From the IMG/VR virus record IMGVR_UViG_3300007229_000009: a stretch of DNA of 64,000 nt. One strand, written 5' to 3'. A program made the position numbers and the translations under genes. Under the pieces are notes generated by a model. The model saw nothing but the letters and a program-made list of their open reading frames with translations, had not been told where the DNA came from and did not search any database. This DNA comes from an uncultured virus (IMG/VR IMGVR_UViG_3300007229_000009). Its lineage: Duplodnaviria; Heunggongvirae; Uroviricota; Caudoviricetes; Crassvirales. Shown piece after piece: positions 1,909 through 16,782 of this stretch (position 1 is its first letter; every line of letters begins with the position of its first letter).

Positions 1909-2516
1909 AGCTATAAATTTAGATAGTAAAGATACTGAAAATTTTTTTGAGTTATTAGATATATAGAGGTTGAGGGTTATTAGTGCTTATACACACACCC
2001 CACCCCCACAGAAAGTCATTATTTTTTTTTGATTAAAAAAGGATTTCAACTTTTTTTTTCAGATTTTTTCAGAATTCCTCCACCCCTTATGACATAGGTA
2101 GGTACTAGGTAGGTGTGACTCCTCACATCCCTTGTTAATTAGGTGTATACATAACTCCTACTCCACTATCTGTAGCCTTCCCTCTTCAATTGGTTAAACA
2201 AAAGAGAAGAGACAGAGAGCCTTCCCTTAACCCCCTCACCGACTGAATTACAACTAAACAAAACACAAACAAAACTCAACTATCATTTCACACTTGATTA
2301 TGATTAGTCAATTAAATATTAAATAGTAATCATTTGAAATAAGTATTAAAGAGAATTGTTTCTCCTAGTCTAAAAGTATTAGTAAAGTATTAGTAATATA
2401 TTAGATATTTATTGTATATTTACTCTATGAGAGACACACTATACACACAATTTACACCTAACTCACTGATAGTCAGTGACTTACCTCTCATATCTAACTT
2501 AATTAAATTAAATACA

Positions 2517-2600
2517 ATGGATGAATTAACTATTATTATCGAGAATGTATTCACAATGAGTGAAGCATTAGACATTAACATTAACCCTTTAAACCTATAA
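2517..2600 (+). CDS. Small early peptide (27 aa; probable true start of track ORF 2412-2600)
   Basis: ATG follows the A-rich TAACTTAATTAAATTAAATACA leader typical of the other early genes. Confidence 0.45.
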   Translation: MDELTIIIENVFTMSEALDININPLNL

Positions 2601-2602
2601 CT

Positions 2603-2782
2603 ATGATTACAAGACTAACACTTACAGACTTAGCAAAATTATCTAACCTAGTGTCTATGGAGATTAAGACTCAACCTCAAAATAGTACAGATGGACTAGA
2701 GGAATTAAGTCTAAAATTTAAAGAATTATTAACCGATGGAAGAAGTTCTTCTTATTGTGTAACCATTAACCCTAACAAATAA
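2603..2782 (+). CDS. Small early protein (59 aa; not in the ORF track)
   Basis: MITRLTLTDLAKLSNLVSMEIK...TINPNK, with a TAACTATG start context, tightly packed between neighbours. Confidence 0.65.
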   Translation: MITRLTLTDLAKLSNLVSMEIKTQPQNSTDGLEELSLKFKELLTDGRSSSYCVTINPNK

Positions 2783-2787
2783 TAACT

Positions 2788-2991
2788 ATGAGTATAAGAC
2801 TTACAAATAATCAATTTTCTCAAATCTTAAAGAGGTTTGATGAGTGGATAGAAGATGGTAATGTCATCACTATTACTGAATCCAACACTAAATATTATGC
2901 AACTCAAGATGCATTGTATAAAAATAGAATAGAATCTAAAGATGATTTACTAGACTATTATATAACTGAATTTAACCCTAATATATCTTAA
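2788..2991 (+). CDS. Small early hypothetical protein
   Basis: ORF track; TAACTATG start context. Confidence 0.7.
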   Translation: MSIRLTNNQFSQILKRFDEWIEDGNVITITESNTKYYATQDALYKNRIESKDDLLDYYITEFNPNIS

Positions 2992-2993
2992 CT

Positions 2994-3119
2994 ATGAAAT
3001 ACTTAATCAAATCAATTTGGAATGACACTAACCCTATAGTAGCTTGTTTAGTCTACACATTACTATTCTTTGATATTATAGGAATTACATTTATAACTTT
3101 TAACTTAATCACATCATAA
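2994..3119 (+). CDS. Small membrane peptide (41 aa; not in the ORF track)
   Basis: MKYLIKSIWNDTNPIVACLVYTLLFFDIIGITFITFNLITS has one hydrophobic segment; TAATG overlap with the next gene. Confidence 0.6.
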   Translation: MKYLIKSIWNDTNPIVACLVYTLLFFDIIGITFITFNLITS

Positions 3120-3757
3120 TGAAAATCAAACAACAAATCTTTGTCAACCTATTTAATAAATTCGATGACAAACCTTTTACTCTAAAGGACATTAGAGAAC
3201 AAGTATGGATTGCTCAAGGAAAGAATCCAAAGAAATTCATCAGTAAGCAAGGTTACTACAATAATACTATTGCAGATTGGTTAACTGATAGACTACTTAT
3301 TAAAGAAGCTAAGAACACTTATAAGTTAGGACTTTATGGTATACAATATTCAAAAAACCCAAATAAAGTCAATGCAATGCTTAGAGAGTTAAGTAAGAAT
3401 GCTCAAGATTATGTAAATAATCTACCTCACAATAAGTATAGGTCAAGATTCACACATCTAATTGGTAGAAAGATTGTTAATGTCAGACACTTAAATCCAC
3501 AAGAATGTGAGAGTTTTGGATGGTACAAATCTCCACTTGCACTATGGTTAGATGATGGTACTATCTTAATTCCTCAGACTGATGATGAGGGTAATGATGG
3601 TGGTGCAATGTTGCACTATGACACAAATCAATGGAGAGACAATTACATTGAAGAAGATGTGTTATTCACTATAGATGCTCAACAATCAGAAGAAGAGATA
3701 AGTAAGGAGAAAGAGTATTACTTGAATAGAGGAATGACAAGTGGTACTATAGATTAG
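3119..3757 (+). CDS. Early hypothetical protein (possible N-terminal winged helix)
   Basis: 212-aa ORF with a C-terminal DDEGNDGG motif; function not recognised. Confidence 0.75.
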   Translation: MKIKQQIFVNLFNKFDDKPFTLKDIREQVWIAQGKNPKKFISKQGYYNNTIADWLTDRLLIKEAKNTYKLGLYGIQYSKNPNKVNAMLRELSKNAQDYVNNLPHNKYRSRFTHLIGRKIVNVRHLNPQECESFGWYKSPLALWLDDGTILIPQTDDEGNDGGAMLHYDTNQWRDNYIEEDVLFTIDAQQSEEEISKEKEYYLNRGMTSGTID

Positions 3758-3796
3758 TTTGGAACAAGGAGAGGCTCGATTCCTCTCCTAATCTCA
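3751..3796 (+). ncRNA. tRNA-like minihelix / T-loop hairpin
   Basis: AGATTAG/CTAATCT stem stacked on GAGAGG-CTCGATT-CCTCTC, resembling a T-arm; no D or anticodon arm. Confidence 0.4.
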
Positions 3797-3804
3797 ATGC
3801 AATA

Positions 3805-4164
3805 ATGCAGATAATTAAATTTAATAAAATTATGAATCAATTTGAATCTAAAGATTTAGACTTAATTCGAGACTTAATCTCTAATAGAAAAGAGGGATTA
3901 GAAGAGAATTACTACACCACTATAAGTGGACAAAAAACCTTGCCTAAACAACAAGTAATTATTCAAGCACAAATCAATCAATGTAATAGAATTATTGATG
4001 TTTTGGATGCTACAGCTGGAAAGGATCTAGCTTGGGAATTTGATAATTCATCTCCAATTATCCACTTGGATGAGAATGGAAATGAACACAAAAATTCTCC
4101 ACTAGAAAACCATTTAAATACAATGGCACACATTATTACTAACCTATCTAAAAAACAGAAATAA
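3805..4164 (+). CDS. Early hypothetical protein (true start probably MNQF at about 3832)
   Basis: ORF track. Confidence 0.7.
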   Translation: MQIIKFNKIMNQFESKDLDLIRDLISNRKEGLEENYYTTISGQKTLPKQQVIIQAQINQCNRIIDVLDATAGKDLAWEFDNSSPIIHLDENGNEHKNSPLENHLNTMAHIITNLSKKQK

Positions 4165-4166
4165 CT

Positions 4167-4433
4167 ATGGAAAATACTTTAAAGATTGAACACCTTGTTG
4201 TAGATGACTTTTGGGTGTATAAAGAAACCAACAAAAATGGTTATGTAGCATTGAACTATATGTTCGGAACAAGTGATGAAGAATATGAGATTTTCAAAAA
4301 AGAATATTGTAAAGCAGATGAAGAGTTTACAACTTGGTATAATTTCTATTATAAAGGAGAGCATACAGATGATGTTATATGCTCAATGATTCATATATGG
4401 CATGATGCTAAAATTTTAAAAACAATTAAATAA
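4167..4433 (+). CDS. Early hypothetical protein
   Basis: ORF track; TAACTATG start context. Confidence 0.7.
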   Translation: MENTLKIEHLVVDDFWVYKETNKNGYVALNYMFGTSDEEYEIFKKEYCKADEEFTTWYNFYYKGEHTDDVICSMIHIWHDAKILKTIK

Positions 4434-4439
4434 ATAACT

Positions 4440-4730
4440 ATGGCACACACTAAAACAAAACAAGACCCAATTGTAGCATTTACTTACTATGCTAACAATT
4501 TTCACTATGACTTTATTGATAGAGTCTGGACAGACAATCCATTACTTGCAAACCACCTACAAGATAAATGGGATACCTTGGTTACACACTTAACTAAGGC
4601 AAGAGAAGAATGTTCTAATCCATTTGTAAGAAATATGACTGGAACAATAATCTTCTATGAGTTCTATATGATGCTTGACCAAAGCAACAAAGAACATTTA
4701 AATGAATTCATCTTAAATCAAAAACAATAA
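4440..4730 (+). CDS. Early hypothetical protein
   Basis: ORF track; TAACTATG start context. Confidence 0.7.
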   Translation: MAHTKTKQDPIVAFTYYANNFHYDFIDRVWTDNPLLANHLQDKWDTLVTHLTKAREECSNPFVRNMTGTIIFYEFYMMLDQSNKEHLNEFILNQKQ

Positions 4731-4732
4731 TT

Positions 4733-4948
4733 ATGAGAAATACTAAAGAATATTGGGATTGGAACAATTCACAAGATGACTTATTAATATTAATAGAAAA
4801 ATCTAAAAATAAATCAAAAGCAATAATTATGAACAAAAAAGAACTTATAGAAAAAATAGAATGGATTATTGAAGGTGCAGATGTTGGAGACAATGTATTC
4901 AAAATAGTACAAGACATTAATAAACTAATAAAAGAACAAAAACAATAA
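4733..4948 (+). CDS. Early hypothetical protein flanked by a 17-bp direct repeat
   Basis: ORF track; CAAAAACAATAATTATG at 4719 and 4937. Confidence 0.65.
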   Translation: MRNTKEYWDWNNSQDDLLILIEKSKNKSKAIIMNKKELIEKIEWIIEGADVGDNVFKIVQDINKLIKEQKQ

Positions 4949-4950
4949 TT

Positions 4951-5460
4951 ATGGGACAATATTTTAGAGTAATAAACAAAACAAAAAAAGAACTACTTAC
5001 TCCTCATACTTTCGGTAGTGGGTTAAAAATAGGAGAGATTATAAGCAGTAGAGGAGAGATTCTGCAAGGACTTGCTTTACTATTGGCAGAAGGACACATA
5101 GAGTACAAAGATTCAATTCCTCAACCATCTACCATTATCGGTAGGTGGCAAGGAGATAAAATAACTATTTTAGGTGACTCTGCATATGACAAAGAAGGTA
5201 ATAACATTTGGAATACTATGTGTGATTCTGAAGGAGAATTAAAGAAGTTATGGAAAGACATTTCTGTTGAGACTTATAAAACACTAATTAAGGACACCTC
5301 AGTAGGCAGTAGGAAAGCCGAACAAATAAAAAAGGAGGGCACAAAATGGATGTATAGTTGTGAGAAAGCACTTATGGAAGAGTTATTCCCTAAAGAATGT
5401 ACAGAGGGAGACTTAAGACAGAAGTATGACTTTGTAGAGAAAGAACAATCTGAAGAGTAA
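4951..5460 (+). CDS. Phage hypothetical protein (MGQY...GRWxGD type)
   Basis: 169-aa ORF; MGQYFRVINKTKKE and IGRWQGDKITILGD look like a conserved phage family; its 3' end overlaps the hammerhead ribozyme. Confidence 0.8.
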   Translation: MGQYFRVINKTKKELLTPHTFGSGLKIGEIISSRGEILQGLALLLAEGHIEYKDSIPQPSTIIGRWQGDKITILGDSAYDKEGNNIWNTMCDSEGELKKLWKDISVETYKTLIKDTSVGSRKAEQIKKEGTKWMYSCEKALMEELFPKECTEGDLRQKYDFVEKEQSEE

Positions 5461-5520
5461 AGGTTTAAACACCTACGAAACTCCCAGACATCTGGGAGTC
5501 ATTGTTTAACTTAATACAAA
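5431..5520 (+). ncRNA. Type I hammerhead ribozyme (predicted cleavage after GUC, C5500)
   Basis: Stem I AACAAT/ATTGTT plus distal TTTGTA/TACAAA; core CTGAAGA (5450-5456); stem II GTA(AA)GGT/ACCTAC; GAAA (5477-5480); stem III ACTCCCAGA/TCTGGGAGT; GTC triplet. Confidence 0.88.
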
Positions 5521-5525
5521 TAATT

Positions 5526-5870
5526 ATGAGCAAATTTATGAAAGCATTAAAGTTTAATCTTGATGCTTATGACAAAGAATTTATCGACAAAGATGATTTC
5601 TTACAAGCTATGGAAGAGCATTATCTCCACCTTAGTATGCCACTAGTAAGAAGACAAACTCTTATTGTAGTGGAGAGAATCAAAAATGAAATCATTGGAG
5701 ATTTTAATGGTAGATTACCAAAAGATTGGCAGACACTTTCTAAAAAAGTGGACCACACTAAGTACTATGCCGACTATCTAACTGACTTAAGTTTTGATTT
5801 ACAACACTACATTGAGGACAGACTTGATGAGTGGTTAATCTTTTGTCACTATAAAAGAAACCAACAATGA
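5526..5870 (+). CDS. Early hypothetical protein (ATG start at 5526 preferred over TTG at 5502)
   Basis: TAATTATG start context immediately after the ribozyme. Confidence 0.7.
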   Translation: MSKFMKALKFNLDAYDKEFIDKDDFLQAMEEHYLHLSMPLVRRQTLIVVERIKNEIIGDFNGRLPKDWQTLSKKVDHTKYYADYLTDLSFDLQHYIEDRLDEWLIFCHYKRNQQ

Positions 5871-6505
5871 ATGTGGTAGAACTTTTTAGTGGAAGCCGAA
5901 GCATAGGAAAAGAGGCAGAGAAGAGAGGACACAAAGTCTTCTCTTCTGATTGTGTGGATTTCCCAAACACAAATTATGTTTGTGATATTATGGATTTTCA
6001 GGTTAGTTCAATCAATTTTGACAGAGTAGATATGTTATGGGCATCACCACCATGTGAGTCATTTTCTGTAGCATCTATTGGACATCATTGGGAGAAAGGA
6101 CATGAGTTTATGCCAAAGACAAATAATGCAGTCAAAGGAATAAACATCTTAATGAGAACTATGAAGATTATAGATATACTCCTTAAGAAAAATCCTAATA
6201 TGATTTGGTACATAGAGAATCCAAGAGGCAAGATGAGAAAGTCTCCTCATTGGAATGATGTTGACCATGTCCGACACACTTTAACCTATTGTCAGTATGG
6301 AGATGATAGGATGAAGCCAACAGACATATGGACCAACAATACTTATTGGACTCCTAAACCTATGTGTAACAATGGAGATCCTTGTCATGTATCTGCACCA
6401 AGAGGAAGTCAAAGTGGAACTCAAGGTCGAGGAAGCTACTTTGATAGAAGTAAGATTCCATCAGAACTTTGTGCAGAGATTGTAGAATCAACAAATAATG
6501 TATAA
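5867..6505 (+). CDS. Short C5 cytosine DNA methyltransferase-like protein
   Basis: Motif I VVELFSGS, motif IV WASPPC and motif VI IENP. Confidence 0.8.
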   Translation: MNVVELFSGSRSIGKEAEKRGHKVFSSDCVDFPNTNYVCDIMDFQVSSINFDRVDMLWASPPCESFSVASIGHHWEKGHEFMPKTNNAVKGINILMRTMKIIDILLKKNPNMIWYIENPRGKMRKSPHWNDVDHVRHTLTYCQYGDDRMKPTDIWTNNTYWTPKPMCNNGDPCHVSAPRGSQSGTQGRGSYFDRSKIPSELCAEIVESTNNV

Positions 6506-6520
6506 CTTAAATTAAATAAT

Positions 6521-6649
6521 ATGAGAGAAAGAGCAATAAACAGAATACTAAATCTTACTGATAAGTATTCTAAAAATCAATTAGAATCAATAAAAGATAC
6601 TCAAGAACTAGTGGCACTAAGTTATGATGTACAAAAAATATTAACTTAA
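6521..6649 (+). CDS. Small early protein (42 aa; not in the ORF track)
   Basis: MRERAINRILNLTDKYSK...KILT, between copies of the TAACTTAAATTAAATAA junction motif. Confidence 0.6.
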   Translation: MRERAINRILNLTDKYSKNQLESIKDTQELVALSYDVQKILT

Positions 6650-6661
6650 ATTAAATAAATT

Positions 6662-6856
6662 ATGATAGTAAAATTAGCAGTTCATTATGAACAACAAAGA
6701 ACCGATAAAAAAGATAACAACAATGGTTTGTTATATGGAATATATCACTATGATGTACCTAAAGAAGATTTAGATACAGACAATATGTTTAACAATGATA
6801 TTGTTCATGTTGAATGGTATAAAACAAAATTAGAAAGAAATATTAACTTAAATTAA
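6662..6856 (+). CDS. Early hypothetical protein flanked by a 30-bp direct repeat
   Basis: ORF track; identical repeats at 6636-6665 and 6838-6867. Confidence 0.7.
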   Translation: MIVKLAVHYEQQRTDKKDNNNGLLYGIYHYDVPKEDLDTDNMFNNDIVHVEWYKTKLERNINLN

Positions 6857-6863
6857 ATAAATT

Positions 6864-7115
6864 ATGAATAGAGAAGAAATATATAATCAAGTAATTCAAG
6901 AGTATTCTGAATTAATAGATAATGGAGAAACTTGGACCACACCATCTGGTGATAATATTCAAGACATAATAGGAAACTTAGTTGACTTAGTTATGAAATA
7001 TGGTGAATTAGTATATGATGTTTTTTACCTTGATGACTATACTTTAGAACAATTAATGGACTATGAATACTTAAAAAAAGATATTAACTTAAAATTAAAA
7101 AGAAATTATGGATAA
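6864..7115 (+). CDS. Acidic hypothetical protein
   Basis: ORF track; D/E-rich. Confidence 0.7.
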   Translation: MNREEIYNQVIQEYSELIDNGETWTTPSGDNIQDIIGNLVDLVMKYGELVYDVFYLDDYTLEQLMDYEYLKKDINLKLKRNYG

Positions 7116-7404
7116 TCAATTTGAAATTATTAAGCATGTACAAGGGCTACTTGCTAAGGAAACCGAAGCAAGAGAACAAGCTGAAGAAAAACTAGAAGAC
7201 TTTAAGAACTCTTATCTTGTGATAGAAAAGAAATATTATCCCAAAGGTGTAGAGTTCTATAAGAAAGCTAAAATGTTTAGACTGCATAGAGAAGATGTCG
7301 ATGAAGATGTTTGGAAAGATTGGTGTGAAGATTTAGAAGTAGATAATGATGTCTATTCAATCTGTGTATGTGCAATTGGAAAACTAGAAGAGGATGAGTC
7401 CTAA
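7108..7404 (+). CDS. Hypothetical protein
   Basis: ORF track. Confidence 0.7.
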   Translation: MDNQFEIIKHVQGLLAKETEAREQAEEKLEDFKNSYLVIEKKYYPKGVEFYKKAKMFRLHREDVDEDVWKDWCEDLEVDNDVYSICVCAIGKLEEDES

Positions 7405-7558
7405 AGATATCATGGTAGAGTTGTTACACATCTTGTCTAAAATGATGAAGGCAAGGTGTGAACAATCTTATGATGAAGCCGAAGCAAACAAATGGTCGGT
7501 CAATCATCAGTTAATAAATGACATCATAAATCAAATAAAAAATGGTGGAATTAAATAA
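7394..7558 (+). CDS. Small protein (54 aa; not in the ORF track)
   Basis: MSPKDIMVELLHILSKMMKARC...NGGIK fills the gap between neighbouring genes. Confidence 0.55.
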   Translation: MSPKDIMVELLHILSKMMKARCEQSYDEAEANKWSVNHQLINDIINQIKNGGIK

Positions 7559-7582
7559 TTATATAACTTTAAAATTAAAAAA

Positions 7583-7783
7583 ATGAGAAAAACAAGTTTA
7601 GATGTATTTGCCGAGTGCAAGTGGGAATTAGAAGAAACAAAAGAAGAATTAAATGTCCTCCAGGTGAAATGGATTGCATTGACTAAGTGGTTAGAAAAAA
7701 ATCATGAAGGTAAGTTTAAGCATGGTATGGATGTAGTTACCAAGGCAATAAATAAAAGGAACAAAAAATTAGGTATTGAATAA
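7583..7783 (+). CDS. Hypothetical protein (coiled coil)
   Basis: ORF track. Confidence 0.65.
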   Translation: MRKTSLDVFAECKWELEETKEELNVLQVKWIALTKWLEKNHEGKFKHGMDVVTKAINKRNKKLGIE

Positions 7784-7792
7784 ATAAAAGTC

Positions 7793-7800
7793 TAGTTTTG
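7793..7800 (+). promoter_or_regulatory. Bacteroidota -7 promoter element (TAGTTTTG)
   Basis: TAnnTTTG match in the intergenic gap before the replication/recombination block. Confidence 0.45.
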
Positions 7801-8002
7801 AGGAAATATAAGACAATAAATGATAAAGTATTATACTCCAGATCCAGAAGATGAAGATGACAATGATGAGATTCTATTTATATAAAAGTTAGTTAGATAG
7901 TTAATTCTAGGTTAAATCCCACCTCACAACATCTGTTAATGATTTGATTTTGTTTTGTGTTGGTTATACAAGAGGTGGGTTTTAATTTACTAAAAAAATT
8001 AC

Positions 8003-8308
8003 ATGAAAAAAGAAATATTTGATAAGTATAGTCAAGCTGTGGCCACTCAATTCCATCTAACATTAGATGAAATGTTTAGCAAAACAAAGAGACAAGACAT
8101 TGTCGAAGCAAGGCAGATATTATATTATCTCTGCAAAGAAAGACCTATTAGAGTTAGTTTTATCCAAAGGTTTTTACAAGAAAATGGATACAACATAACT
8201 CATTCCAATATTATGTATGGCTACAATCAAGCCAAGAAAATGATTGAACAAGATTCCGATTATAAAAATTTTATAGACCAAGCCACAAATGATGCGAACT
8301 CTGATTGA
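8003..8308 (+). CDS. DnaA C-terminal (domain IV)-like helix-turn-helix protein
   Basis: LTLDEMFSKTKRQDIVEARQILYYL...THSNIMYG resembles the DnaA domain IV pattern (SxxRxxxIVxARQIAMYL...DHTTV). Confidence 0.7.
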   Translation: MKKEIFDKYSQAVATQFHLTLDEMFSKTKRQDIVEARQILYYLCKERPIRVSFIQRFLQENGYNITHSNIMYGYNQAKKMIEQDSDYKNFIDQATNDANSD

Positions 8309-8702
8309 GATATATAATGAAGCCAAAGAAGATCCTAGAGCTATCATTACAGAATTTAGCAATAGAGAGTCTATAATAAACAAAGGTTGTAAAATCCAAA
8401 AGTTTACTGATAGGATAGAGATACTTAATATGGGTAAGGGTGGAGACTATTTTAGAATCTGCACTAAAGATGAGTATGACTTTTTTTATATCCATGGGTG
8501 GAAGGTTGGAGTAATCTTGTTAGCATTAAGTAATTGTCAGTATAAACTAGACATTATTAAAGAAAGAATTAAAAAGGAAGTAAACACCAGAAAAAACGAT
8601 AAGCACATTCAGAATTTAAAAAACAGAAGAGAGGCTATCATGGTTAAGTTCACTAATTATAAAAGAAAATTAAATCAAATTAAATCTAAATCACAATTAT
8701 GA
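8289..8702 (+). CDS. Hypothetical protein
   Basis: ORF track; overlaps both neighbours in operon fashion. Confidence 0.7.
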   Translation: MMRTLIEIYNEAKEDPRAIITEFSNRESIINKGCKIQKFTDRIEILNMGKGGDYFRICTKDEYDFFYIHGWKVGVILLALSNCQYKLDIIKERIKKEVNTRKNDKHIQNLKNRREAIMVKFTNYKRKLNQIKSKSQL

Positions 8703-9241
8703 ATAAATTAAAATCAATTAAAATTAAAGGTAAGGATTATGTTGAAGTTCATGAAAGACTTAAGTATTTCAGAGCCACATATCCTAAGTATTCTCTAACT
8801 ACAGAAGTTATAGAGAAAACAGAATCATCAATACTAGTCATGGCTATTATAAAAGATGATAAAGATAGAATCTTAGCTACAGGTTTAGCCGAAGAGTCTA
8901 AAAATTCTACATTTATAAATAAAACAAGTTATGTAGAAAATGCAGAGACTTCAGCTTGGGGAAGAGCATTAGGTAATTTAGGTATAGGATTAGATACATC
9001 TGTAGCAAGTGCAGATGAAGTAGGTAATGCTATAGCTAATCAAAACAAACCTACTAAGGTTATTAAAAAAACCAAGAAAGAAGGTAAATGGACTTTAAAA
9101 GTTGAGGATGAAAAGTGGGATGTGGTCCTAGGATGGATTGCTAAGAATAAAGAATTAGGTCTGCCAAAAATAATAGAAGTCTTAGAAGGTGGATACACAA
9201 TAGGTGATGATGTAAAAGTAGAAATTAAAAAACATGTATAG
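8699..9241 (+). CDS. Single-strand annealing recombinase (Sak/Rad52-like)
   Basis: IKGKDYVEVHERL and ENAETSAWGRAL motifs; adjacent to an exonuclease and an SSB. Confidence 0.65.
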   Translation: MNKLKSIKIKGKDYVEVHERLKYFRATYPKYSLTTEVIEKTESSILVMAIIKDDKDRILATGLAEESKNSTFINKTSYVENAETSAWGRALGNLGIGLDTSVASADEVGNAIANQNKPTKVIKKTKKEGKWTLKVEDEKWDVVLGWIAKNKELGLPKIIEVLEGGYTIGDDVKVEIKKHV

Positions 9242-10043
9242 CCCTATGGATCCACAAGCAATAGTCTTGGATAAACTCCAAGATGACATCAATTATTATG
9301 GTGACTATGGTAAGCAGTTTTTATCATACTCAGACATCAGAGTATTATTTACTACTCCTAATTTATTCAAGCAAGACACTTTAAAGTCTAAAGCATTGAT
9401 TGAAGGTTCTTACTTTCATACTGCAATGCTTGAGCCAGATAGAATTAAAGAGTATGAAATAGTAGATGTAGCATCTAGGTCAACTAAAGCATACAAAGAA
9501 GTTTGTCCTCCAGGCGAAATACTTTTGCTTAGAAAAGAGCAAGAGCATTTAGACAAATTAGTGGCTACTATGAAGGATAGTCTAGAAATGAGTTCTATTA
9601 TATATAGTAGAGACAACAATTTTGAAGTTCCTGGCACAGAATCTATAATGAATAATATGTGGAAAGGCAAAGCTGATATTGTAACTGACTCTGCTTTTCA
9701 AGTTATAGCAGAGGACCAAGATGGTAATGAGCAAGTTATAGACTATAGTGATGGTGCAGTCATTGATTTAAAGACTACATCAGATATGACAAAGTTTAGA
9801 TACTCATTTTTTACTTATAATTATGATGCTCAAAGCTATATATACCAAAGATTATTTAATAAACCAATGTTGTTTCTTGTAATTGACAAGCAGACAATGA
9901 GGTTGTCAATGAGACCTGTTTCTGCCGACACTATTGAAAGAGGTAAGTTAAAAGTAGAACAAGCAACTAGAATTTATGAGAAATTTTTCGGTGATAAGGC
10001 AACTCATGATGTTAACACATTTATTGATAAGCAAATTATATAA
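9234..10043 (+). CDS. PD-(D/E)XK exonuclease (RecE/ExoVIII-like)
   Basis: LSYSDI, GSYFHTAMLEP, KGKAD, IDLKTT and YDAQSYIY motifs. Confidence 0.85.
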   Translation: MYSPMDPQAIVLDKLQDDINYYGDYGKQFLSYSDIRVLFTTPNLFKQDTLKSKALIEGSYFHTAMLEPDRIKEYEIVDVASRSTKAYKEVCPPGEILLLRKEQEHLDKLVATMKDSLEMSSIIYSRDNNFEVPGTESIMNNMWKGKADIVTDSAFQVIAEDQDGNEQVIDYSDGAVIDLKTTSDMTKFRYSFFTYNYDAQSYIYQRLFNKPMLFLVIDKQTMRLSMRPVSADTIERGKLKVEQATRIYEKFFGDKATHDVNTFIDKQII

Positions 10044-10177
10044 CCTATATAAAAAGAAAACAAGACCAACTCACTTACAAGTGGATGTTCCAAACACTTG
10101 TAGTAGTTGGAAGGAAAGAAGACAAATTCTTTCTGTAACAAGAAAATTTTTGGAACAAAACATTAAAATTGTAAAAA

Positions 10178-10474
10178 ATGAGTGAAGCAACTAAAAAGAA
10201 CTACATTAAAGTAGGTAAAGGTGTTGAAAAGTTTGATGGTGGCTTGATAGAAATATCAGTCTGTCTTTCTGAAATACCACAAGAACACCGTTTCCAGTAT
10301 GAAGGAAAATGGTATACTAAACTAAAAGTTAATAGAAACAGAGATGGTGTAGATGATTATGGTAAGTCTCACTATGTGACTATTAATGAGTGGAAGCCAG
10401 AGGCTAAAGAACAAAAGCCAGCTCCACCAGTAGCAAAGAAAGAAGAAGAGGTTAGTCCTGATCTTCCATTTTAG
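10178..10474 (+). CDS. Putative single-stranded DNA-binding protein
   Basis: Small beta-rich protein ending in an acidic PDLPF tail; DDYGKSH motif; located in the recombination block. Confidence 0.65.
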   Translation: MSEATKKNYIKVGKGVEKFDGGLIEISVCLSEIPQEHRFQYEGKWYTKLKVNRNRDGVDDYGKSHYVTINEWKPEAKEQKPAPPVAKKEEEVSPDLPF

Positions 10475-10571
10475 TGTGTTTGGGTGTGAGAAATAGGAGG
10501 CGAAAGCCACACTAACTCACAATCAAGACAATAGGGTATGAGAAGAGTGTGGTTTCTCTTCTCTGCTCTTT

Positions 10572-10680
10572 TGTCAAATGACAAATGACAAAAAAAATTT
10601 ACTATAGACCACTATAATAACAATTAGTATTATATTTTTTTATATTATTATATATTATTAAATATTGACATAATTGACAT
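10572..10680. repeat. TGTC/GACA repeat element, copy B (candidate origin or operator before the primase)
   Basis: TGTCAAATGACAAATGACA...ACTATA...TTGACATAATTGACAT around an AT-only tract. Confidence 0.6.
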
Positions 10681-10724
10681 AACAGAGTAAAAGTTAAAAT
10701 TAAATTAAATTAAATCGACATCAA

Positions 10725-13136
10725 ATGGACATCACCATCTTTAAAGATATTAAAGAAACAGCACAACCATTCTATAGAAAGGTCGATGTTATCTTAAAAA
10801 GAATACAAGAAGGCTCATCAAAAGATTTAGTTAAAAGAATCCGAGCTGAGAAAGACAAAGAAAAAAGAAACTTATTAAAACAACAACTCCCGGCCATTTG
10901 TTTCAGTGGGACATTCACAAAAAGAAATGATTCCTCACTACAGAGTCACAGTGGCTTAATATGTTTAGACTTTGATGGTTATAAGACTAACAAAGACATG
11001 CTTCAGGAAAAAGAAAGGCTAAGTAAAAACAAATATATATTTGCTTTGTTTATTTCACCTAGTGGCAAAGGATTAAAGGCAGTTGTTAAAATTCCTAAAG
11101 AGCCAGAAAATCATAAAAATTATTTCTTAAGTCTGCAACATCATGTAAACTCAGAGTATTTCGATAAAACTTGTAAAAACATATCTAGAGTTTGTTATGA
11201 GTCTTATGATCCATTACTTTATGTTAATGCTAATTCAAGTACATGGGATAAAATTGTAGAGCAAGAGTATACAGAGGTTATAAAACATGTAGATATCCCT
11301 ACCATACCAGTAACAGATGAGAATAAAATAGTTGACATTTTAACTAAGTGGTGGCAAAAGAAGTACCCAATGATAGAAGGTCAGAGAAATCAAAACATCT
11401 ATATATTGGCCGCAGCATTTAATGATTTTGGTGTTAACCAGACTCTAGCAGAGTATGTCATGAATAGTTTTTCTAGTCAAAATTTTAGTGCTACAGAAAT
11501 TAAGAGGACTATATCTTCTGCATATGCACAAAAACAAAACTTTGGTACAAAGTATTATGAGGATGAAGACAAGGTTAACTTAGTTAGAGAGAAGTTAAAA
11601 AGAGGTGTATCAAAAAAAGAAATCCGATCCCAGCTTGAAGAGTCTGATGTTGAGGTCGGCACAATAGAGAATGTTTTAGTCAGACTCGAGGATGAGCAAT
11701 CTAATAGTAAGTTCTGGACAAAGAATGATAAAGGAGTTATAAAAATTGTACACATATCTTTTAAAAGTTTCTTAGAAGAGAATGGTTTTTATAAATTTAA
11801 TCCTGAAGGCAGTAGAAGTTATGTATTTGTAAGGGTTACAAACAACCTTATAGACCACACATCAGAAAAAGAGATTAAAGATTTTATTCTTAACTACTTG
11901 TTAGAAATAGATGATTTGACAGTTTATAATTACTTTGCAGAGCATACAAGATATTTTAGAGAAGAGTTTTTAACTTTATTATCTTCTATTGATGTGTATT
12001 TTATAGAAGACAATAAGAATACTGCATACTTATATTATAAATCTGGTGCAGTAAAGGTTACACACAATAGTGTTACACCAATAGACTACCTAGATTTAGG
12101 TGGATATGTTTGGAAGGACCATGTAATAGACAGAACTTATGTTTCATGTGAGTCTAATGAGTGTGACTATAAAAGTTTTATTACTAATATATGTGGTAAG
12201 GATGAGAGTAGAGTCAATTCAATGAGGTCTACAATAGGATATTTGCTACATGCATGGAAAAATTTATCGTATAGCCCAGCTACAATACTTAATGATGAAC
12301 AAATATCTGATTCTCCTGAAGGTGGTACTGGTAAGGGTTTATTTATAAATGCTTTGTCACACATGAAGAAGGTTGTTGTAATAGATGGTAAGTCTTTTAA
12401 TTTTGAGAAATCATTCGCCTATCAATTAGTAAGTGCAGACACACAAATATTATGTTTTGATGATGTAAGTAAGCATTTTAACTTTGAACGATTATTCTCA
12501 GTTGTTACTGAGGGATTAACACTGGAAAAGAAAAACAAAGATGCTATAAAGATTCCTTTTTCTAAATCTCCAAAGGTTGCAATAACTACAAACTATGCAA
12601 TTAGAGGTAAAGGCTCATCATTTGAACGAAGAAAGTGGGAGTTAGAATTAGCACAACATTATACTAGAGAGCATACTCCAGTAAAAGAGTTTGGTAAACT
12701 TATGTTCGGAGAATGGAATGATGATGAGTGGTGTGCTTTTGATAATTTTATGATTGAGTGTCTTCAGCTTTACCTAAGAGATGGTTTAGTTAAGAGTGAA
12801 TTTGTTAACTTGAAGATTAGAAGGCTATCTGCCGAAACATGTCATGAGTTTATAGAATGGTGTGGTATACTGGATGGAATGCCTTTGAACAAAATGTTAG
12901 CAACCAATACAAAAATATTTAAACAAGACTTGTACTTTGATTTTATTGAAGACAATCCAGACTTTGCACCTAAGTCTAAAATGACAGTGTCAAGGACTAG
13001 GTTCTATAAATGGTTAACTGCTTACAACCAGTACAAGCACAAGTGCGATCCTGAAGAAGGAAGAGAAGCAGGAGGTAGATGGATAGTATTCAGAAATGCA
13101 CAGAAAATAGAAGAAAATGGAAAAATAGATTTTTAG
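10725..13136 (+). CDS. Primase-helicase (VirE-N/BT4734-like prim-pol, PriCT and P-loop helicase domains)
   Basis: LPAICFSGTF, GLICLDFD, FISPSGKGLK; EGQRNQNIY (PriCT); Walker A GGTGKG; Walker B CFDD; ITTN. Confidence 0.85.
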   Translation: MDITIFKDIKETAQPFYRKVDVILKRIQEGSSKDLVKRIRAEKDKEKRNLLKQQLPAICFSGTFTKRNDSSLQSHSGLICLDFDGYKTNKDMLQEKERLSKNKYIFALFISPSGKGLKAVVKIPKEPENHKNYFLSLQHHVNSEYFDKTCKNISRVCYESYDPLLYVNANSSTWDKIVEQEYTEVIKHVDIPTIPVTDENKIVDILTKWWQKKYPMIEGQRNQNIYILAAAFNDFGVNQTLAEYVMNSFSSQNFSATEIKRTISSAYAQKQNFGTKYYEDEDKVNLVREKLKRGVSKKEIRSQLEESDVEVGTIENVLVRLEDEQSNSKFWTKNDKGVIKIVHISFKSFLEENGFYKFNPEGSRSYVFVRVTNNLIDHTSEKEIKDFILNYLLEIDDLTVYNYFAEHTRYFREEFLTLLSSIDVYFIEDNKNTAYLYYKSGAVKVTHNSVTPIDYLDLGGYVWKDHVIDRTYVSCESNECDYKSFITNICGKDESRVNSMRSTIGYLLHAWKNLSYSPATILNDEQISDSPEGGTGKGLFINALSHMKKVVVIDGKSFNFEKSFAYQLVSADTQILCFDDVSKHFNFERLFSVVTEGLTLEKKNKDAIKIPFSKSPKVAITTNYAIRGKGSSFERRKWELELAQHYTREHTPVKEFGKLMFGEWNDDEWCAFDNFMIECLQLYLRDGLVKSEFVNLKIRRLSAETCHEFIEWCGILDGMPLNKMLATNTKIFKQDLYFDFIEDNPDFAPKSKMTVSRTRFYKWLTAYNQYKHKCDPEEGREAGGRWIVFRNAQKIEENGKIDF

Positions 13137-13207
13137 GGGTATGTAGGTATCACTAACTATGAGAAAGTCTCTTAGAACGCATCTATGAAAGCCGAATTTT
13201 AGAAAAT

Positions 13208-14398
13208 ATGAAGAAAATCACTGTTTTAGACCTTTTTTCAGGAATTGGTGGATTTCACAAAGGTTTTGAAAAAGCGGGTTATAAAGTTAAAACTTTCTTT
13301 TCAGAAGTTGATGCTCATGCCATTGCAGTGTATAAATATAATTTTAAAAATAGTAAGTATGTCGGATCAGTTACAGATGTTCGAGGAACACAGTTACCAA
13401 AAATTGACGCTATCACCTTTGGAAGCCCTTGCCAAGACTTTAGTGTCGCTGGAAATCGTAAAGGGATGGGAGGAGATAGATCGAGCCTTATCCTTGAAGC
13501 GATTAGACTCATTGATGAATGCCGACCAGGAATTTTTATCTGGGAAAATGTTAAAGGAACATTCAGCTCAAACGATGGCAGAGATTTTGCGGCAATCCTC
13601 CAAGCCTTTACCAACATTGGGGGTTATAGACTTGAATGGCAATTGTGTAATACATCGTGGTTTCTACCCCAAAACAGAGAGAGAATCTACCTTGTCGGAT
13701 ATTCTGCAAACCCCCCAAGAGATTGGAAAGGAGTTTTTCCTATCGAAATCAGCTCAAGCAAGACTCAAGGAATACAAAAAGGAGTAGCCCAGGTAAGTAA
13801 CTTTTCTGAAAGAGAGTTTGGTTTTAAAGATACTGCACCAGCTTTGTTGTCAAGAGACTATAAAGATCCTAAGATAGTAAGAGCTGCAGACTACAGAAAT
13901 GATGAAGGACTACGAATAAGAACTGAGGGTGATAGCCCTTGTCTATCTGCAAGAAGACACAGTGAAAAAGATATTAGCACCATGCCTCCTTTAGTTTTAT
14001 CTGGTGCATTGAGAACAAGAGATAATGGTAAAGATTTAGAAACAAGAAAAGATAATGTGGCTAATGCAGTAACAACAAGTCCATTAGATAGTATAGTTGT
14101 GCCAACACAACTAGGCAATTCAGATAAATTTGGTAATGCAGTTAAATCTGATGGTGAGGATGCATTTACTTTAAGGTCCTCTGAACCCAATGGCATAATA
14201 GAAAATGAATCTATAAGAAGACTGACACCTATAGAGTGTGAAAGACTACAAGGATTTCCTGATAACTGGACTGAGTATGGTATATATGATGGGGTGACTA
14301 AAAAGGTAAGCAACACTCAAAGATATAAGATGTGTGGGAATGCAGTGACTGTAGATGTTGTTCAAGCAGTGGTTAATAAATGCAAAGACATAATATGA
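13208..14398 (+). CDS. C5 cytosine DNA methyltransferase (Dcm-like)
   Basis: FSGIGG, GSPCQDFS, ENV, PQNRER, RRLTPIECERLQGFPD and GNAVTV motifs. Confidence 0.95.
   Translation: MKKITVLDLFSGIGGFHKGFEKAGYKVKTFFSEVDAHAIAVYKYNFKNSKYVGSVTDVRGTQLPKIDAITFGSPCQDFSVAGNRKGMGGDRSSLILEAIRLIDECRPGIFIWENVKGTFSSNDGRDFAAILQAFTNIGGYRLEWQLCNTSWFLPQNRERIYLVGYSANPPRDWKGVFPIEISSSKTQGIQKGVAQVSNFSEREFGFKDTAPALLSRDYKDPKIVRAADYRNDEGLRIRTEGDSPCLSARRHSEKDISTMPPLVLSGALRTRDNGKDLETRKDNVANAVTTSPLDSIVVPTQLGNSDKFGNAVKSDGEDAFTLRSSEPNGIIENESIRRLTPIECERLQGFPDNWTEYGIYDGVTKKVSNTQRYKMCGNAVTVDVVQAVVNKCKDII
13359..13787 (+). CDS. Nested +1-frame ORF, M.EcoHK31I beta-polypeptide-like
   Basis: MSDQLQMF...ESTLSDILQTPQEIGKEFFLSKSAQARL with an A-rich leader, lying entirely within the methyltransferase gene. 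Confidence 0.5.
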   Translation: MSDQLQMFEEHSYQKLTLSPLEALAKTLVSLEIVKGWEEIDRALSLKRLDSLMNADQEFLSGKMLKEHSAQTMAEILRQSSKPLPTLGVIDLNGNCVIHRGFYPKTERESTLSDILQTPQEIGKEFFLSKSAQARLKEYKKE

Positions 14399-15627
14399 AA
14401 TTAAGACAATATCAATCTGACATCGTAGAAAAAGGTACAGAGGTTTTAAAAAAACATGGATTTTTGTATCTTGCTATGGAGGTTAGGACTGGTAAAACCT
14501 TGACAAGTTTGGCTATGAGTCTTGCTCTTCCAGTTCATAACCTCTTATTTATTACAAAGAAAAAAGCAATCTCCAGTATACAAGGAGATTATGATATGCT
14601 TAATCCTTCCTATAATATTACTATAATAAATTACGAAAGCCTACATAAAGTGTCTCATGAGACAAAGTGGGACTTAATAGTTTGTGATGAGGCACATTCG
14701 ATGGGTGCATTTCCAAAACCTAGCCTTAGAGCCAAGACAGTTAAAGAGTTTATATTAAAACATAATCCATATGTAATTCTTTTATCTGGTACACCAACAC
14801 CAGAATCTTACTCACAAATGTACCACCAGGTTTATGCTATTAGAAATAATCCTTTTAATCAATATAAAAGTTTTTACAAGTTTGCTAAACAATATGTACA
14901 AGTTAAACAAAAAAAAATAGGAGCCATGACTATAAATGACTGGAGTCATGGGTTACAATCAATACTCGATGATATGAAACCATATACAATTGCATATACT
15001 CAGAAAGAAGCTGGGTTTAAAGTTAACACTGATGAAGAAGTTTTACATGTTCCACTTACTAGTGTGATAAAATCATTAGTAAGAAGGCTTACCAAAGATA
15101 GGGTTGTTGAAGGATCGGAGAATGTAATATTGGCAGACACAGCAGTAAAGCTTATGTCAAAATTACATCAACTGTATTCTGGTACAGTTAAATTTGAAAG
15201 TGGAGAGTCTATGGTTATAGATTTATCTAAGGCAGAATTTATCAGAAAACAATTTAGAAGTAAAAAGATTGCTATATTTTATAAGTTTAAAGAAGAGTTA
15301 AATGCTTTAAAAAAAGTATATCGTAAAGGTTTGTGTACAGAACTAGAAGAGTTTAACACTACTAATAAAAGTATTGCACTACAAATAGTTTCAGGAAGAG
15401 AGGGTATAAGTTTAAAAAATGCACAAGCCTTGGTATATTACAATATAGACTTTAGTGCTACAAGTTACTGGCAATCAAGAGACAGAATGACCACAAAAGA
15501 TAGGTTGTATAATAAAATATACTGGGTATTTTCTGAGGGTGGTATTGAGGATGACATATACAAGAGTGTTATAAAGAAGAAAGATTACACCCTTAATCAT
15601 TTCAAAAAGGATTTACTAAATTTGTAA
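14380..15627 (+). CDS. SF2/SNF2-like helicase (start probably MKLRQYQ at 14395)
   Basis: LRQYQ Q-motif, EVRTGKT, DEAH, LSGTP and QSRDR motifs. Confidence 0.9.
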   Translation: MQRHNMKLRQYQSDIVEKGTEVLKKHGFLYLAMEVRTGKTLTSLAMSLALPVHNLLFITKKKAISSIQGDYDMLNPSYNITIINYESLHKVSHETKWDLIVCDEAHSMGAFPKPSLRAKTVKEFILKHNPYVILLSGTPTPESYSQMYHQVYAIRNNPFNQYKSFYKFAKQYVQVKQKKIGAMTINDWSHGLQSILDDMKPYTIAYTQKEAGFKVNTDEEVLHVPLTSVIKSLVRRLTKDRVVEGSENVILADTAVKLMSKLHQLYSGTVKFESGESMVIDLSKAEFIRKQFRSKKIAIFYKFKEELNALKKVYRKGLCTELEEFNTTNKSIALQIVSGREGISLKNAQALVYYNIDFSATSYWQSRDRMTTKDRLYNKIYWVFSEGGIEDDIYKSVIKKKDYTLNHFKKDLLNL

Positions 15628-15628
15628 T

Positions 15629-15850
15629 ATGAGGTTTATTAAGTTTACTCTTATTTGGATAAGCCAGAACTTAGCAATACCTTTTTGGATTGTAGGGCAC
15701 ATACATTTATCAATTCATAGTTTTCATGACTTAATTGAGTTAGTATCTTCAATAGGAATGAATGTGATTGTAGCTATAGGCTTTTATTTAGATTATAAAA
15801 ATGACAGAGCAACAAATACAAAGCAAAAGAATAAAAGAACTAGAGGCTGA
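15629..15850 (+). CDS. Small membrane protein
   Basis: Two hydrophobic segments. Confidence 0.55.
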   Translation: MRFIKFTLIWISQNLAIPFWIVGHIHLSIHSFHDLIELVSSIGMNVIVAIGFYLDYKNDRATNTKQKNKRTRG

Positions 15851-16040
15851 AGGATATTATGTGCTTAAATTAATTAAGACTAATAAAAATGGGATACCTG
15901 ATTTACTTGCAATACCTCCGAACTGTGAAGTATTGTTTTCGGAAGTTAAAACTCCGAAAGGTAAGGTGTCAGTTTTACAGAAGTATAGATTAAAAGAATT
16001 AGAAGAATATGGATTTAGAACCGAGGTACATAAAGGATAG
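15801..16040 (+). CDS. VRR-NUC family nuclease
   Basis: MTEQQIQ, GIPDL, EVKTPKG and LQKYR motifs; next to the helicase. Confidence 0.85.
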   Translation: MTEQQIQSKRIKELEAEGYYVLKLIKTNKNGIPDLLAIPPNCEVLFSEVKTPKGKVSVLQKYRLKELEEYGFRTEVHKG

Positions 16041-16332
16041 AGGCTATGAAGTAGAAGATAACTTTGTAACCTCACTAGAAGAGATAGAAGAACCTATCGC
16101 TATAAAAATAGCTTTGTTTATACAAGATAATCTAAGAGATATTTCTCCTAATAATTTTACTACTTATGTGTTAGGTGGTGTAGTACATTATTATAATGAA
16201 CCTATTACTTTTGCTGTTGAAGTGATGAAAACACATGGAGAGTATTTAACACTTACAGACTTATCATTAATAAATATGAATGAATATTTAGATTTGATAT
16301 GTTTAAATTCATACATAAAACCTAGAAAATGA
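16009..16332 (+). CDS. Hypothetical protein
   Basis: ORF track. Confidence 0.65.
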   Translation: MDLEPRYIKDRGYEVEDNFVTSLEEIEEPIAIKIALFIQDNLRDISPNNFTTYVLGGVVHYYNEPITFAVEVMKTHGEYLTLTDLSLINMNEYLDLICLNSYIKPRK

Positions 16333-16544
16333 TATACAAAGTCGAAGATTTAGAATATTTCAAATCATATAAAAGAAATTTATATCAATTTTTAATTATT
16401 AATTGTTGTTATCCTGGGACCTATAATCCTAATGGTGGACGCATCCCTATATCTGCACATAACATGTTAGGATTGCTTAAAGAGATTAGTAGACTAGAAA
16501 TTCATATCGCTAAAATAAACCAAGAATTAGGTACTGACATTTGA
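16329..16544 (+). CDS. Hypothetical protein
   Basis: ORF track; ATGA overlap with the previous gene. Confidence 0.6.
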   Translation: MIYKVEDLEYFKSYKRNLYQFLIINCCYPGTYNPNGGRIPISAHNMLGLLKEISRLEIHIAKINQELGTDI

Positions 16545-16590
16545 ATCTTACTAAAATTTTTTTATATTTGGTATAGATGGGAAAAAAAAA

Positions 16591-16782
16591 ATGAACGGTA
16601 TATCTCAAGACGATGTGAGTGCGATTAAGCATATTAACTTTGTGACAAACAACTCACACAACCTCATCACCGAATTATATGAAGACTTAATGGAGAGAGA
16701 TCACAACGAAGCAAAAGCCAAGGCGCAAAAAGTTTGTAAACTTATGGCTGATTTAATTCAGTCATTGTCTGATGAAGTTTAA
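16591..16782 (+). CDS. Hypothetical protein with its own TATATTTG promoter (16563-16570)
   Basis: ORF track; TAnnTTTG upstream; last gene of the plus-strand arm. Confidence 0.65.
   Translation: MNGISQDDVSAIKHINFVTNNSHNLITELYEDLMERDHNEAKAKAQKVCKLMADLIQSLSDEV

Follow-up and report, generated by a model that had tools for sequence, protein, structure and literature searches.

Phage-borne hammerhead ribozymes have been established since 2011, and the class itself is not new. Among the closest known systems are the clustered prophage and phage hammerheads of Perreault et al. 2011 (PMC3088659), which lie between genes of polycistronic units; in the account given there, self-processing of long polycistronic transcripts into single-gene mRNAs was proposed for the prophage hammerheads, native polycistronic RNAs of ~2 kb were cleaved in vitro, and the purpose of phage hammerhead self-cleavage was called unclear. 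Here we describe positions 5444-5506 (+ strand) of a 64,000-nucleotide (nt) stretch from an uncultured virus (IMG/VR record IMGVR_UViG_3300007229_000009; hereafter the window, meaning the whole stretch that was analysed), where a junction between two small genes holds what comparative evidence strongly supports as a genuine type I hammerhead. The element shares its catalytic core and its intergenic position with the 2011 set, several members of which flank single small genes, as the relatives of the window element do, and some of which have an anti-restriction gene downstream, as does one copy found here (L083). It differs from that set, as far as the paper outside its supplementary datasets describes it, in belonging to a family with an invariant 20-nt bulged stem II and with an upstream stop codon that is often embedded in the ribozyme.

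Polycistronic early transcripts are also cut between cistrons at the RNase III sites of T7 early mRNA, which differ in needing a host enzyme, in consisting of hairpins without a catalytic core and in their end chemistry. RiboJ, an engineered hammerhead-based insulator whose source was a plant satellite RNA, is not evidence on the window element. Its likeness is functional only, in that a self-cleaving ribozyme just upstream of a start codon trims the 5' context of the mRNA (PMC6206723). A further comparison is with the HHphage ribozyme of haloviruses HF1 and HF2, for which a mapped 5' end is reported to lie no more than 3 nt from the cleavage site; it differs from the window element in belonging to an archaeal virus, in its variant core and in a start codon 13 nt away, compared with 25 nt here (PMC3088659).

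Anatomy and covariation of the ribozyme

Read from the sequence, window 5444-5506 (+) runs AACAAT-CTGAAGA-GTAAAGGTTTAAACACCTAC-GAAA-CTCCCAGACATCTGGGAG-TC-ATTGTT, which is the order of a complete type I hammerhead (Table 1). The initial annotation had listed these core elements, the stems and a GUC cleavage site, and every one was found where it had placed them. In hammerhead numbering, the C3-A9 strand is CUGAAGA (5450-5456), and G12-A14, the A15.1-U16.1 pair and a non-G H17 are supplied by GAAA 5477-5480, A5480-T5499 and C5500. By the criteria given in the methods of PMC3088659, three helices adjoin the core through standard pairs (10.1-11.1, G5457-C5476; 1.1-2.1, A5501-T5449). Compensatory changes were found for stems I and III, and for stem II in sister copies only (see below). 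Stem I is open and stems II and III are closed by loops, the type I topology, which is common to 75 of 78 family copies.

Table 1. Features of the hammerhead locus and its flanking genes in the window.
Feature	Position	Strand	Remarks
Upstream open reading frame (ORF), 169 amino acids (aa)	4951..5460	+	No Pfam or PHROG family; ends ...EQSEE, TAA 5458-5460 inside stem II
Outer helix 5' arm TTTGTA	5431..5436	+	Helix not conserved; probably lies outside the element
Stem I 5' strand AACAAT	5444..5449	+	All 6 pairs vary on both sides in 41 sequences
Core C3 U4 G5 A6 N7 G8 A9, CUGAAGA	5450..5456	+	N7 is A5454
Stem II module GUAAAGGU-UUAAAC-ACCUAC	5457..5476	+	3 base pairs (bp), AA bulge, 3 bp, 6-nt loop TTAAAC; holds TAA 5458-5460
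Core G12 A13 A14 and A15.1, GAAA	5477..5480	+	G12-A14 at 5477-5479
Stem III hairpin	5480..5499	+	A15.1-U16.1 plus CUCCCAG/CUGGGAG, loop ACAU; 5 of 6 counted pairs vary on both sides
H17, C	5500	+	Predicted scissile bond C5500/A5501, from the hammerhead consensus; GUC at 5498-5500
Stem I 3' strand ATTGTT	5501..5506	+	Pairs with 5444-5449
Unpaired T-A directly 3' of stem I	5507..5508	+	A5508 invariant in the family; candidate tertiary contact
A/U-rich leader	5509..5525	+	Between ribozyme and start codon; no Shine-Dalgarno-like run
Outer helix 3' arm TACAAA	5515..5520	+	Not conserved
Downstream ORF, 114 aa	5526..5870	+	No Pfam or PHROG family; 3' end runs into the start of the gene that follows
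DNA (cytosine-5) methyltransferase-like gene	5867..6505	+	phrog_757, E 4e-33; PF00145, 21.9 bits, just below the cut-off of 22

A generic type I descriptor (exact core, stem II of at least 3 bp, stem III of at least 4 bp, stem I of at least 5 bp) matched once in the 64-kb window, both strands together; of 300 shuffles that preserved dinucleotides, one had a match. At minimum energy, 5431-5520 folded (-21.7 kcal/mol, z = -2.86) into a three-way junction with stem I, the distal part of stem II and stem III.

The comparative evidence came from an alignment, made with MAFFT, of 41 distinct family members with a short stem III. When the hammerhead structure was imposed on it, 99.4% of cells could pair, compared with 74.9% after shuffling and 33-45% when partners were slid by 1-3 columns. 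Both sides had changed in all six stem I pairs and in five of the six counted stem III pairs, and the covariation score of 0.577 (0.140 for shuffles) was reached by none of 500 shuffles. De novo prediction by RNAalifold arrived at the hammerhead junction as well, and 10 of its 15 pairs showed compensatory change. The initial annotation had proposed a type I hammerhead cutting after the GUC that ends at C5500 and had pointed to stem covariation in related contigs as a check; stems I and III do covary strongly, and the predicted cut after C5500 is strongly supported because the core is invariant, N7 is free, H17 is never G and stems I and III are extensively compensated (the search pattern fixed the six core positions other than N7, and the parser demanded U16.1 and a non-G H17).

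An outer extension of stem I, which the initial annotation drew from TTTGTA 5431-5436 and TACAAA 5515-5520 and took to cover the A-rich leader of the ATG at 5526, fared less well. The complementary letters are present in the window, but across 74 distinct flank pairs the best complementarity averaged 5.62, as against 5.49 for shuffled flanks, and the helix is probably outside the element since it is not conserved as a helix. Its 3' arm is altered in L001 and L005 and its 5' arm in L115.

The ribozyme family in related phage DNA

Relatives of the 169-aa upstream protein were found in five viral contigs, three of which (L001, L002 and L005) carry the ribozyme in the equivalent position. The first ribozyme of L005 has a different N7, through a synonymous change (GAA to GAG), and a stem III whose sequence is altered but whose pairing is kept. 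We then have a wider view from pattern scans with the core plus stem II, in which the AA bulge was fixed and the loop free for viral contigs, and both bulge and loop were free for metagenomes and genome contigs. These yielded 14 viral loci, 108 metagenome stretches (mostly from marine samples) and 8 genome-contig loci, 130 in total, and the exact module GTAAAGGT-N(5-8)-ACCTAC was present in 113 of them. The other 17 were rejected as chance matches, being G+C-rich (mean 0.52, compared with 0.32), with other bulges and no hammerhead stems.

After removal of duplicates there were 91 distinct matches, 76 of which parsed as type I. One of these, L089, which has a different stem II and a UUU triplet, was judged a chance match; the 15 that did not parse comprised two type III hammerheads (L016 and L031), one copy (L071) in which a single pair of stem III is mismatched, and 12 chance matches. 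The hammerhead layout was present in 78 of 78 distinct module-bearing copies (75 type I, two type III, one with one mismatch), so there was no larger pool of failed copies from which the covariation set could have been chosen. Among the 76 parsed copies, L089 included, N7 was T in 55, A in 12, C in seven and G in two, and the cleavage triplet was GUC in 56, GUA in 11, AUC in six, GUU in two and UUU in L089.

The stem II bulge was AA in all 78 copies, though the looser pattern left it free, loop II, free in the search, was always U-Y-U-N-A-A-C-like, and the identical module occurred across at least 13 stem I classes. The second unpaired base 3' of stem I was A in 70 of 70 distinct contexts, again spanning at least 13 stem I classes. 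The AA bulge, loop II and this A are candidates for a tertiary contact between stems I and II. The two type III copies (L016:1491-1546 and L031:118-186) are circularly permuted, with stem I loop-closed and stem III open, and keep the invariant stem II module. Family copies L130 and L136 lie on contigs binned to an Arcobacteraceae metagenome-assembled genome (36 kb) and an Ilumatobacteraceae one (3 kb); with a G+C of 0.31 and 0.28 and flanks resembling phage DNA, both may be phage contigs that were assigned to bacterial bins.

A covariance model, R1, was built from the 41-sequence alignment. Run on the window without filters it matched only at 5440-5510, with 84.5 bits (the window sequence is itself in the seed alignment), and the next best site scored 13.3 bits. 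R1 matched once in G001, the whole record nearest to the window (89.3 kb, estimated complete, with 94% of sampled words in common), twice each in two other records (G002 and G003) and seven times in G005 (64.7 kb), where the matches are clustered within a few kb. Over 96 loci R1 gave 113 matches at E <= 0.001, many of them spaced by 300-450 nt. They included sister copies in related phages that share the core but have a shorter stem II (4 bp, 5-nt loop), and this stem covaries (GGAU/AUCC, GCAU/AUGC, GAAU/AUUC, GUCC/GGAC, GUUC/GAAC, GAUU/AAUC), so all three helices are supported across the wider family. The seven hammerheads of G005, a record estimated complete, belong to two stem II classes and sit at both of its ends (L137 and L138; G005:C1:61800-64683 and 1-1200), a few hundred nt apart between small genes. 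Such arrays match the prophage arrangement for which PMC3088659 showed cleavage of polycistronic RNA in vitro. In L005 a second ribozyme (598-666) follows the first by ~260 nt; its core reads TTGATAA and not CTGATGA (C3U and G8A), and it scored 35.7 bits with R1 and failed the exact-core parser. According to PMC3088659, C3U and G8A covary in nature, and a ribozyme with both changes is active in vitro.

In the defining features that can be read from the DNA the element is a hammerhead, yet the Rfam models miss it. The top match of a permissive search over 5380-5570 was RF03152 (RAGATH-1-hammerhead), at 23 bits compared with a gathering score of 56.3 (E = 0.063). The two have in common the strings CUGANGAG...CGAAAC, a stem III opening with CUCCC...GGGAG, and GUC; they differ in that the 5' hairpin of RF03152 is not formed in the window and that the window's stem II has 20 nt, where the model has a minimal one. 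The other Rfam hammerhead families, including type I, are alike in topology (open stem I) and core, and the window's helix III is long (8 bp). In type I hammerheads of eukaryotic retroelements, helix III is described as shorter than in those of bacteria and phages (PMC13725137).

No match at E <= 1 was returned when the ribozyme was compared by blastn with 50,697 deposited phage records. The strings of the stem II module were not mentioned in the open literature searched, where just two unrelated primer matches came up; the supplements of PMC3088659 lay outside that search, and a prior listing there is possible. What the family adds to a known class is a well-populated, covarying subfamily of 113 loci, mostly marine, that Rfam misses and deposited phage records lack, a ribozyme core that doubles compactly as the coding sequence for a protein's final four residues and stop codon, and a strikingly constant distance from cut to start codon. 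A family model would improve the annotation of marine viromes, and the fixed geometry makes a simple system for asking what self-cleavage does in phage early-gene expression.

Proposed role and alternative explanations

The ribozyme lies on the sense strand of a block of small and replication genes (+ strand ORFs, ~2430 to 16780), which from their content we infer to be early genes. The last codons of ORF 4951-5460, CAA UCU GAA GAG UAA, are at once stem I, the CUGANGA box and the first part of stem II. This overlap, which the initial annotation had pointed out as a QSEE tail and stop encoded by the core, is real and conserved: the 169-aa protein has 25 homologues, all from metagenomes, and 22 of them, down to 55% identity, end in Q-S-[E/D]-E. 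The tail corresponds to CAA UCU GAN GAG UAA, with the E/D alternation falling on N7; the other three homologues have different ends. Across the family, 60 of 75 copies have the upstream stop codon at -17 to +8, counted from the C of CUGA; it is a TAA within stem II in 13, like that of the window, and the UGA of CUGA itself in four. On the other side, an ATG opening at least 40 codons follows the cut by 19-32 nt in 72 of 75 copies and by 22-27 nt in 67 of them, after an A-rich leader; in the window ATG 5526 is 25 nt past the predicted cut.

The motif, its conservation, the covarying stems and the fixed place between stop and start codons make it probable that a genuine type I hammerhead cuts the polycistronic transcript between C5500 and A5501 and is likely to uncouple the neighbouring cistrons. 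Self-cleavage of a polycistronic early transcript, which the initial annotation had proposed, as PMC3088659 did for prophage hammerheads, and which fits the gene arrangement, is the likely role. A transcript of the + strand block would fold into a three-helix junction and cut itself between C5500 and A5501. The 5' product would contain ORF 4951-5460 and finish with the hairpins of stems II and III and a terminal 2',3'-cyclic phosphate, and the 3' product would begin with a 5'-OH and the 25-nt A/U-rich leader, followed by ORF 5526-5870 and, as its second cistron, the overlapping methyltransferase-like gene 5867-6505, with end chemistry as expected from the established hammerhead mechanism. The neighbouring cistrons would then be uncoupled, each with defined ends and with its own stability and translation.

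Several observations weigh against this reading. The upstream stop codon is inside the ribozyme, and a terminating ribosome would be expected to unfold the hammerhead, which makes efficiency in vivo uncertain; because the stop codon lies in or beside the ribozyme, cleavage may compete with translation of the upstream gene. A tertiary contact between stems I and II is required for fast hammerhead cleavage at cellular Mg2+; the family comparison found no pairing partner for one, and stem I has only six A/U-rich pairs. Stem II is invariant in the main family and is without covariation support there, an invariance that is at least partly, and perhaps largely, due to the search pattern having fixed it. 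The reverse complement folds about as stably (z = -2.54), and since both strands fold about equally well the strand was assigned from the asymmetric core and the gene orientation and not from energy. An Rfam search, suggested with the initial annotation, gave no match at the gathering score in the window, none of the five Rfam matches at E <= 10 on 5380-5570 was to another hammerhead family, and 15 related loci gave no hammerhead match, only two tRNA matches. Nor did the family model find a copy in MW202828.1 and NC_055853.1, deposited relatives by terminase similarity.

The missing Rfam match would suit a chance resemblance or a decayed, inactive relic, as would the 2-nt bulge in stem II, a feature penalised by some curation rules (PMC3088659). 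Against this stand the rarity of the motif in shuffled sequence, the gap between the 84.5 bits of the window copy, a seed member, and the next site, the strong covariation, the AA bulge kept in every copy where the looser pattern would have allowed others, and a ribozyme-encoded protein tail preserved down to 55% protein identity; chance origin is excluded, and we give this explanation as a whole the least credence of all. Only slightly more can be said for an intrinsic terminator or 3' stabilising hairpin, a non-catalytic reading in which stem III and a T-rich tail would stop or shield the upstream transcript. A simple scan does flag 5480-5499 followed by CATTGTTTAA, with eight pairs of which five are G-C, but that scan is weakly specific (10 sites found, 5.3 expected), the T-rich tail is not conserved, with TCTTAACCAATAAAA after stem III in the largest group, and the invariant CUGANGA and GAAA strands and the covarying stem I would be unexplained, so that we regard it as very improbable. 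The near-identical 31-nt stretch from CTGA to GAAA might instead be a DNA homology patch for swapping small early genes, with RNA cleavage secondary. The gene neighbourhoods are indeed mosaic: the same upstream gene family precedes at least three unrelated downstream clusters, the downstream family of the window recurs behind a ribozyme with another stem I (L058), 36 downstream clusters occur among 71 copies, and the module is identical across its many stem I classes. Such a linker accounts neither for the compensatory pairing of stems I and III nor for the same core in sister copies with another stem II, and as the principal explanation it is improbable, although recombination and RNA cleavage are not mutually exclusive roles.

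More credible than these, and still unlikely, is that the ribozyme, beyond simply separating cistrons, serves above all to generate a leader or switch translation, by making a defined, unstructured 5'-OH leader of 22-27 nt that promotes downstream initiation without Shine-Dalgarno pairing; it may be a natural counterpart of the RiboJ insulator, possibly gated by ribosomes terminating on the overlapping stop codon. The tight spacing from cut to ATG speaks for this, as do the A-rich leader with no Shine-Dalgarno-like run, the stop codon inside or at most 17 nt from the ribozyme in most copies, and terminase relatives that include Flavobacterium, Cellulophaga and Tenacibaculum phages. Type I hammerheads in the 5' untranslated regions of RNA viruses reportedly serve translation initiation (PMC13725137), and RiboJ reportedly raises expression of the insulated gene (PMC6206723). 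The spacing may, on the other hand, simply mirror tight phage gene packing and a minimal initiation region, and the outer helix, which would have to mask the leader, is not conserved. Self-cleavage of the polycistronic transcript and a role in initiation could also be combined, as RNA punctuation that at the same time builds a translation start in phages of non-Shine-Dalgarno, Flavobacteriaceae-like hosts, placing a 5'-OH 22-27 nt before the start codon, with the terminating ribosome gating folding; cleavage and downstream initiation would then be tied to translation of the upstream gene through the embedded stop codon. We hold this fuller version to be unlikely as well. Two loci touch on it. 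L003, which has no ribozyme in the slot, carries a tRNA-Arg(TCT) gene (3504-3578) 24 nt past the stop of the homologous gene, and L004, likewise without the ribozyme, carries a tRNA-like element (3612-3726, with a 58-nt insertion) that is sub-threshold (24.3 bits, E = 0.013). These two cases give no more than a hint that a different RNA-processing signal can occupy the slot after the upstream gene, and that any such signal fits, as in mitochondrial tRNA punctuation.

Cutting of many target copies by one ribozyme was considered and, for this window, rejected. Sites matching CTGGGAGTCATTGTT with at most 3 mismatches numbered four, compared with 1.79 expected and equalled in 11 of 100 shuffles, and the only exact CTGGGAGTCATTGTT site in the window is the ribozyme's own.

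Genome setting, host and flanking genes

The window is a segment of a tailed-phage genome with portal, terminase, tail fibre, primase/helicase and exonuclease genes and two methyltransferase-like genes. A Flavobacteriaceae host is likely, because the terminase relatives are phages of Flavobacterium, Cellulophaga, Tenacibaculum and Maribacter. Hosts of the Flavobacteriaceae type largely do not use Shine-Dalgarno pairing.

Public RNA runs, covered as Logan contigs, which cannot show RNA ends, gave short pieces, mostly from relatives, and among the pieces listed none bridged or informatively stopped at 5500/5501. One 3263-nt contig of a marine RNA library (run X3, record 11) holds an unsplit sister ribozyme with stem I AAATCT; it matches the window only at 5449-5481 (core and stem II), and may be DNA carry-over or uncleaved RNA.

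Pairwise nucleotide identity of the flanks was uninformative in such A/T-rich DNA, and protein comparisons were therefore used. Almost all of the 36 downstream gene clusters encode small proteins, and three match a PHROG family; the gene downstream in L083 is the anti-restriction protein mentioned above. The Atlas entry for the 169-aa protein contains only unnamed viral clusters. In L117 a homologue of this protein (MGQYYKVFNKTKKEY...) is directly downstream of another family ribozyme, so this gene family can bear a hammerhead on either side. The second methyltransferase-like gene of the window (13208-14398, +) lies in the same block as 5867-6505 and matches phrog_116 and phrog_363. Beyond that block, a single ORF of 2992 aa (16783-25761, -) heads the structural genes of the minus strand.

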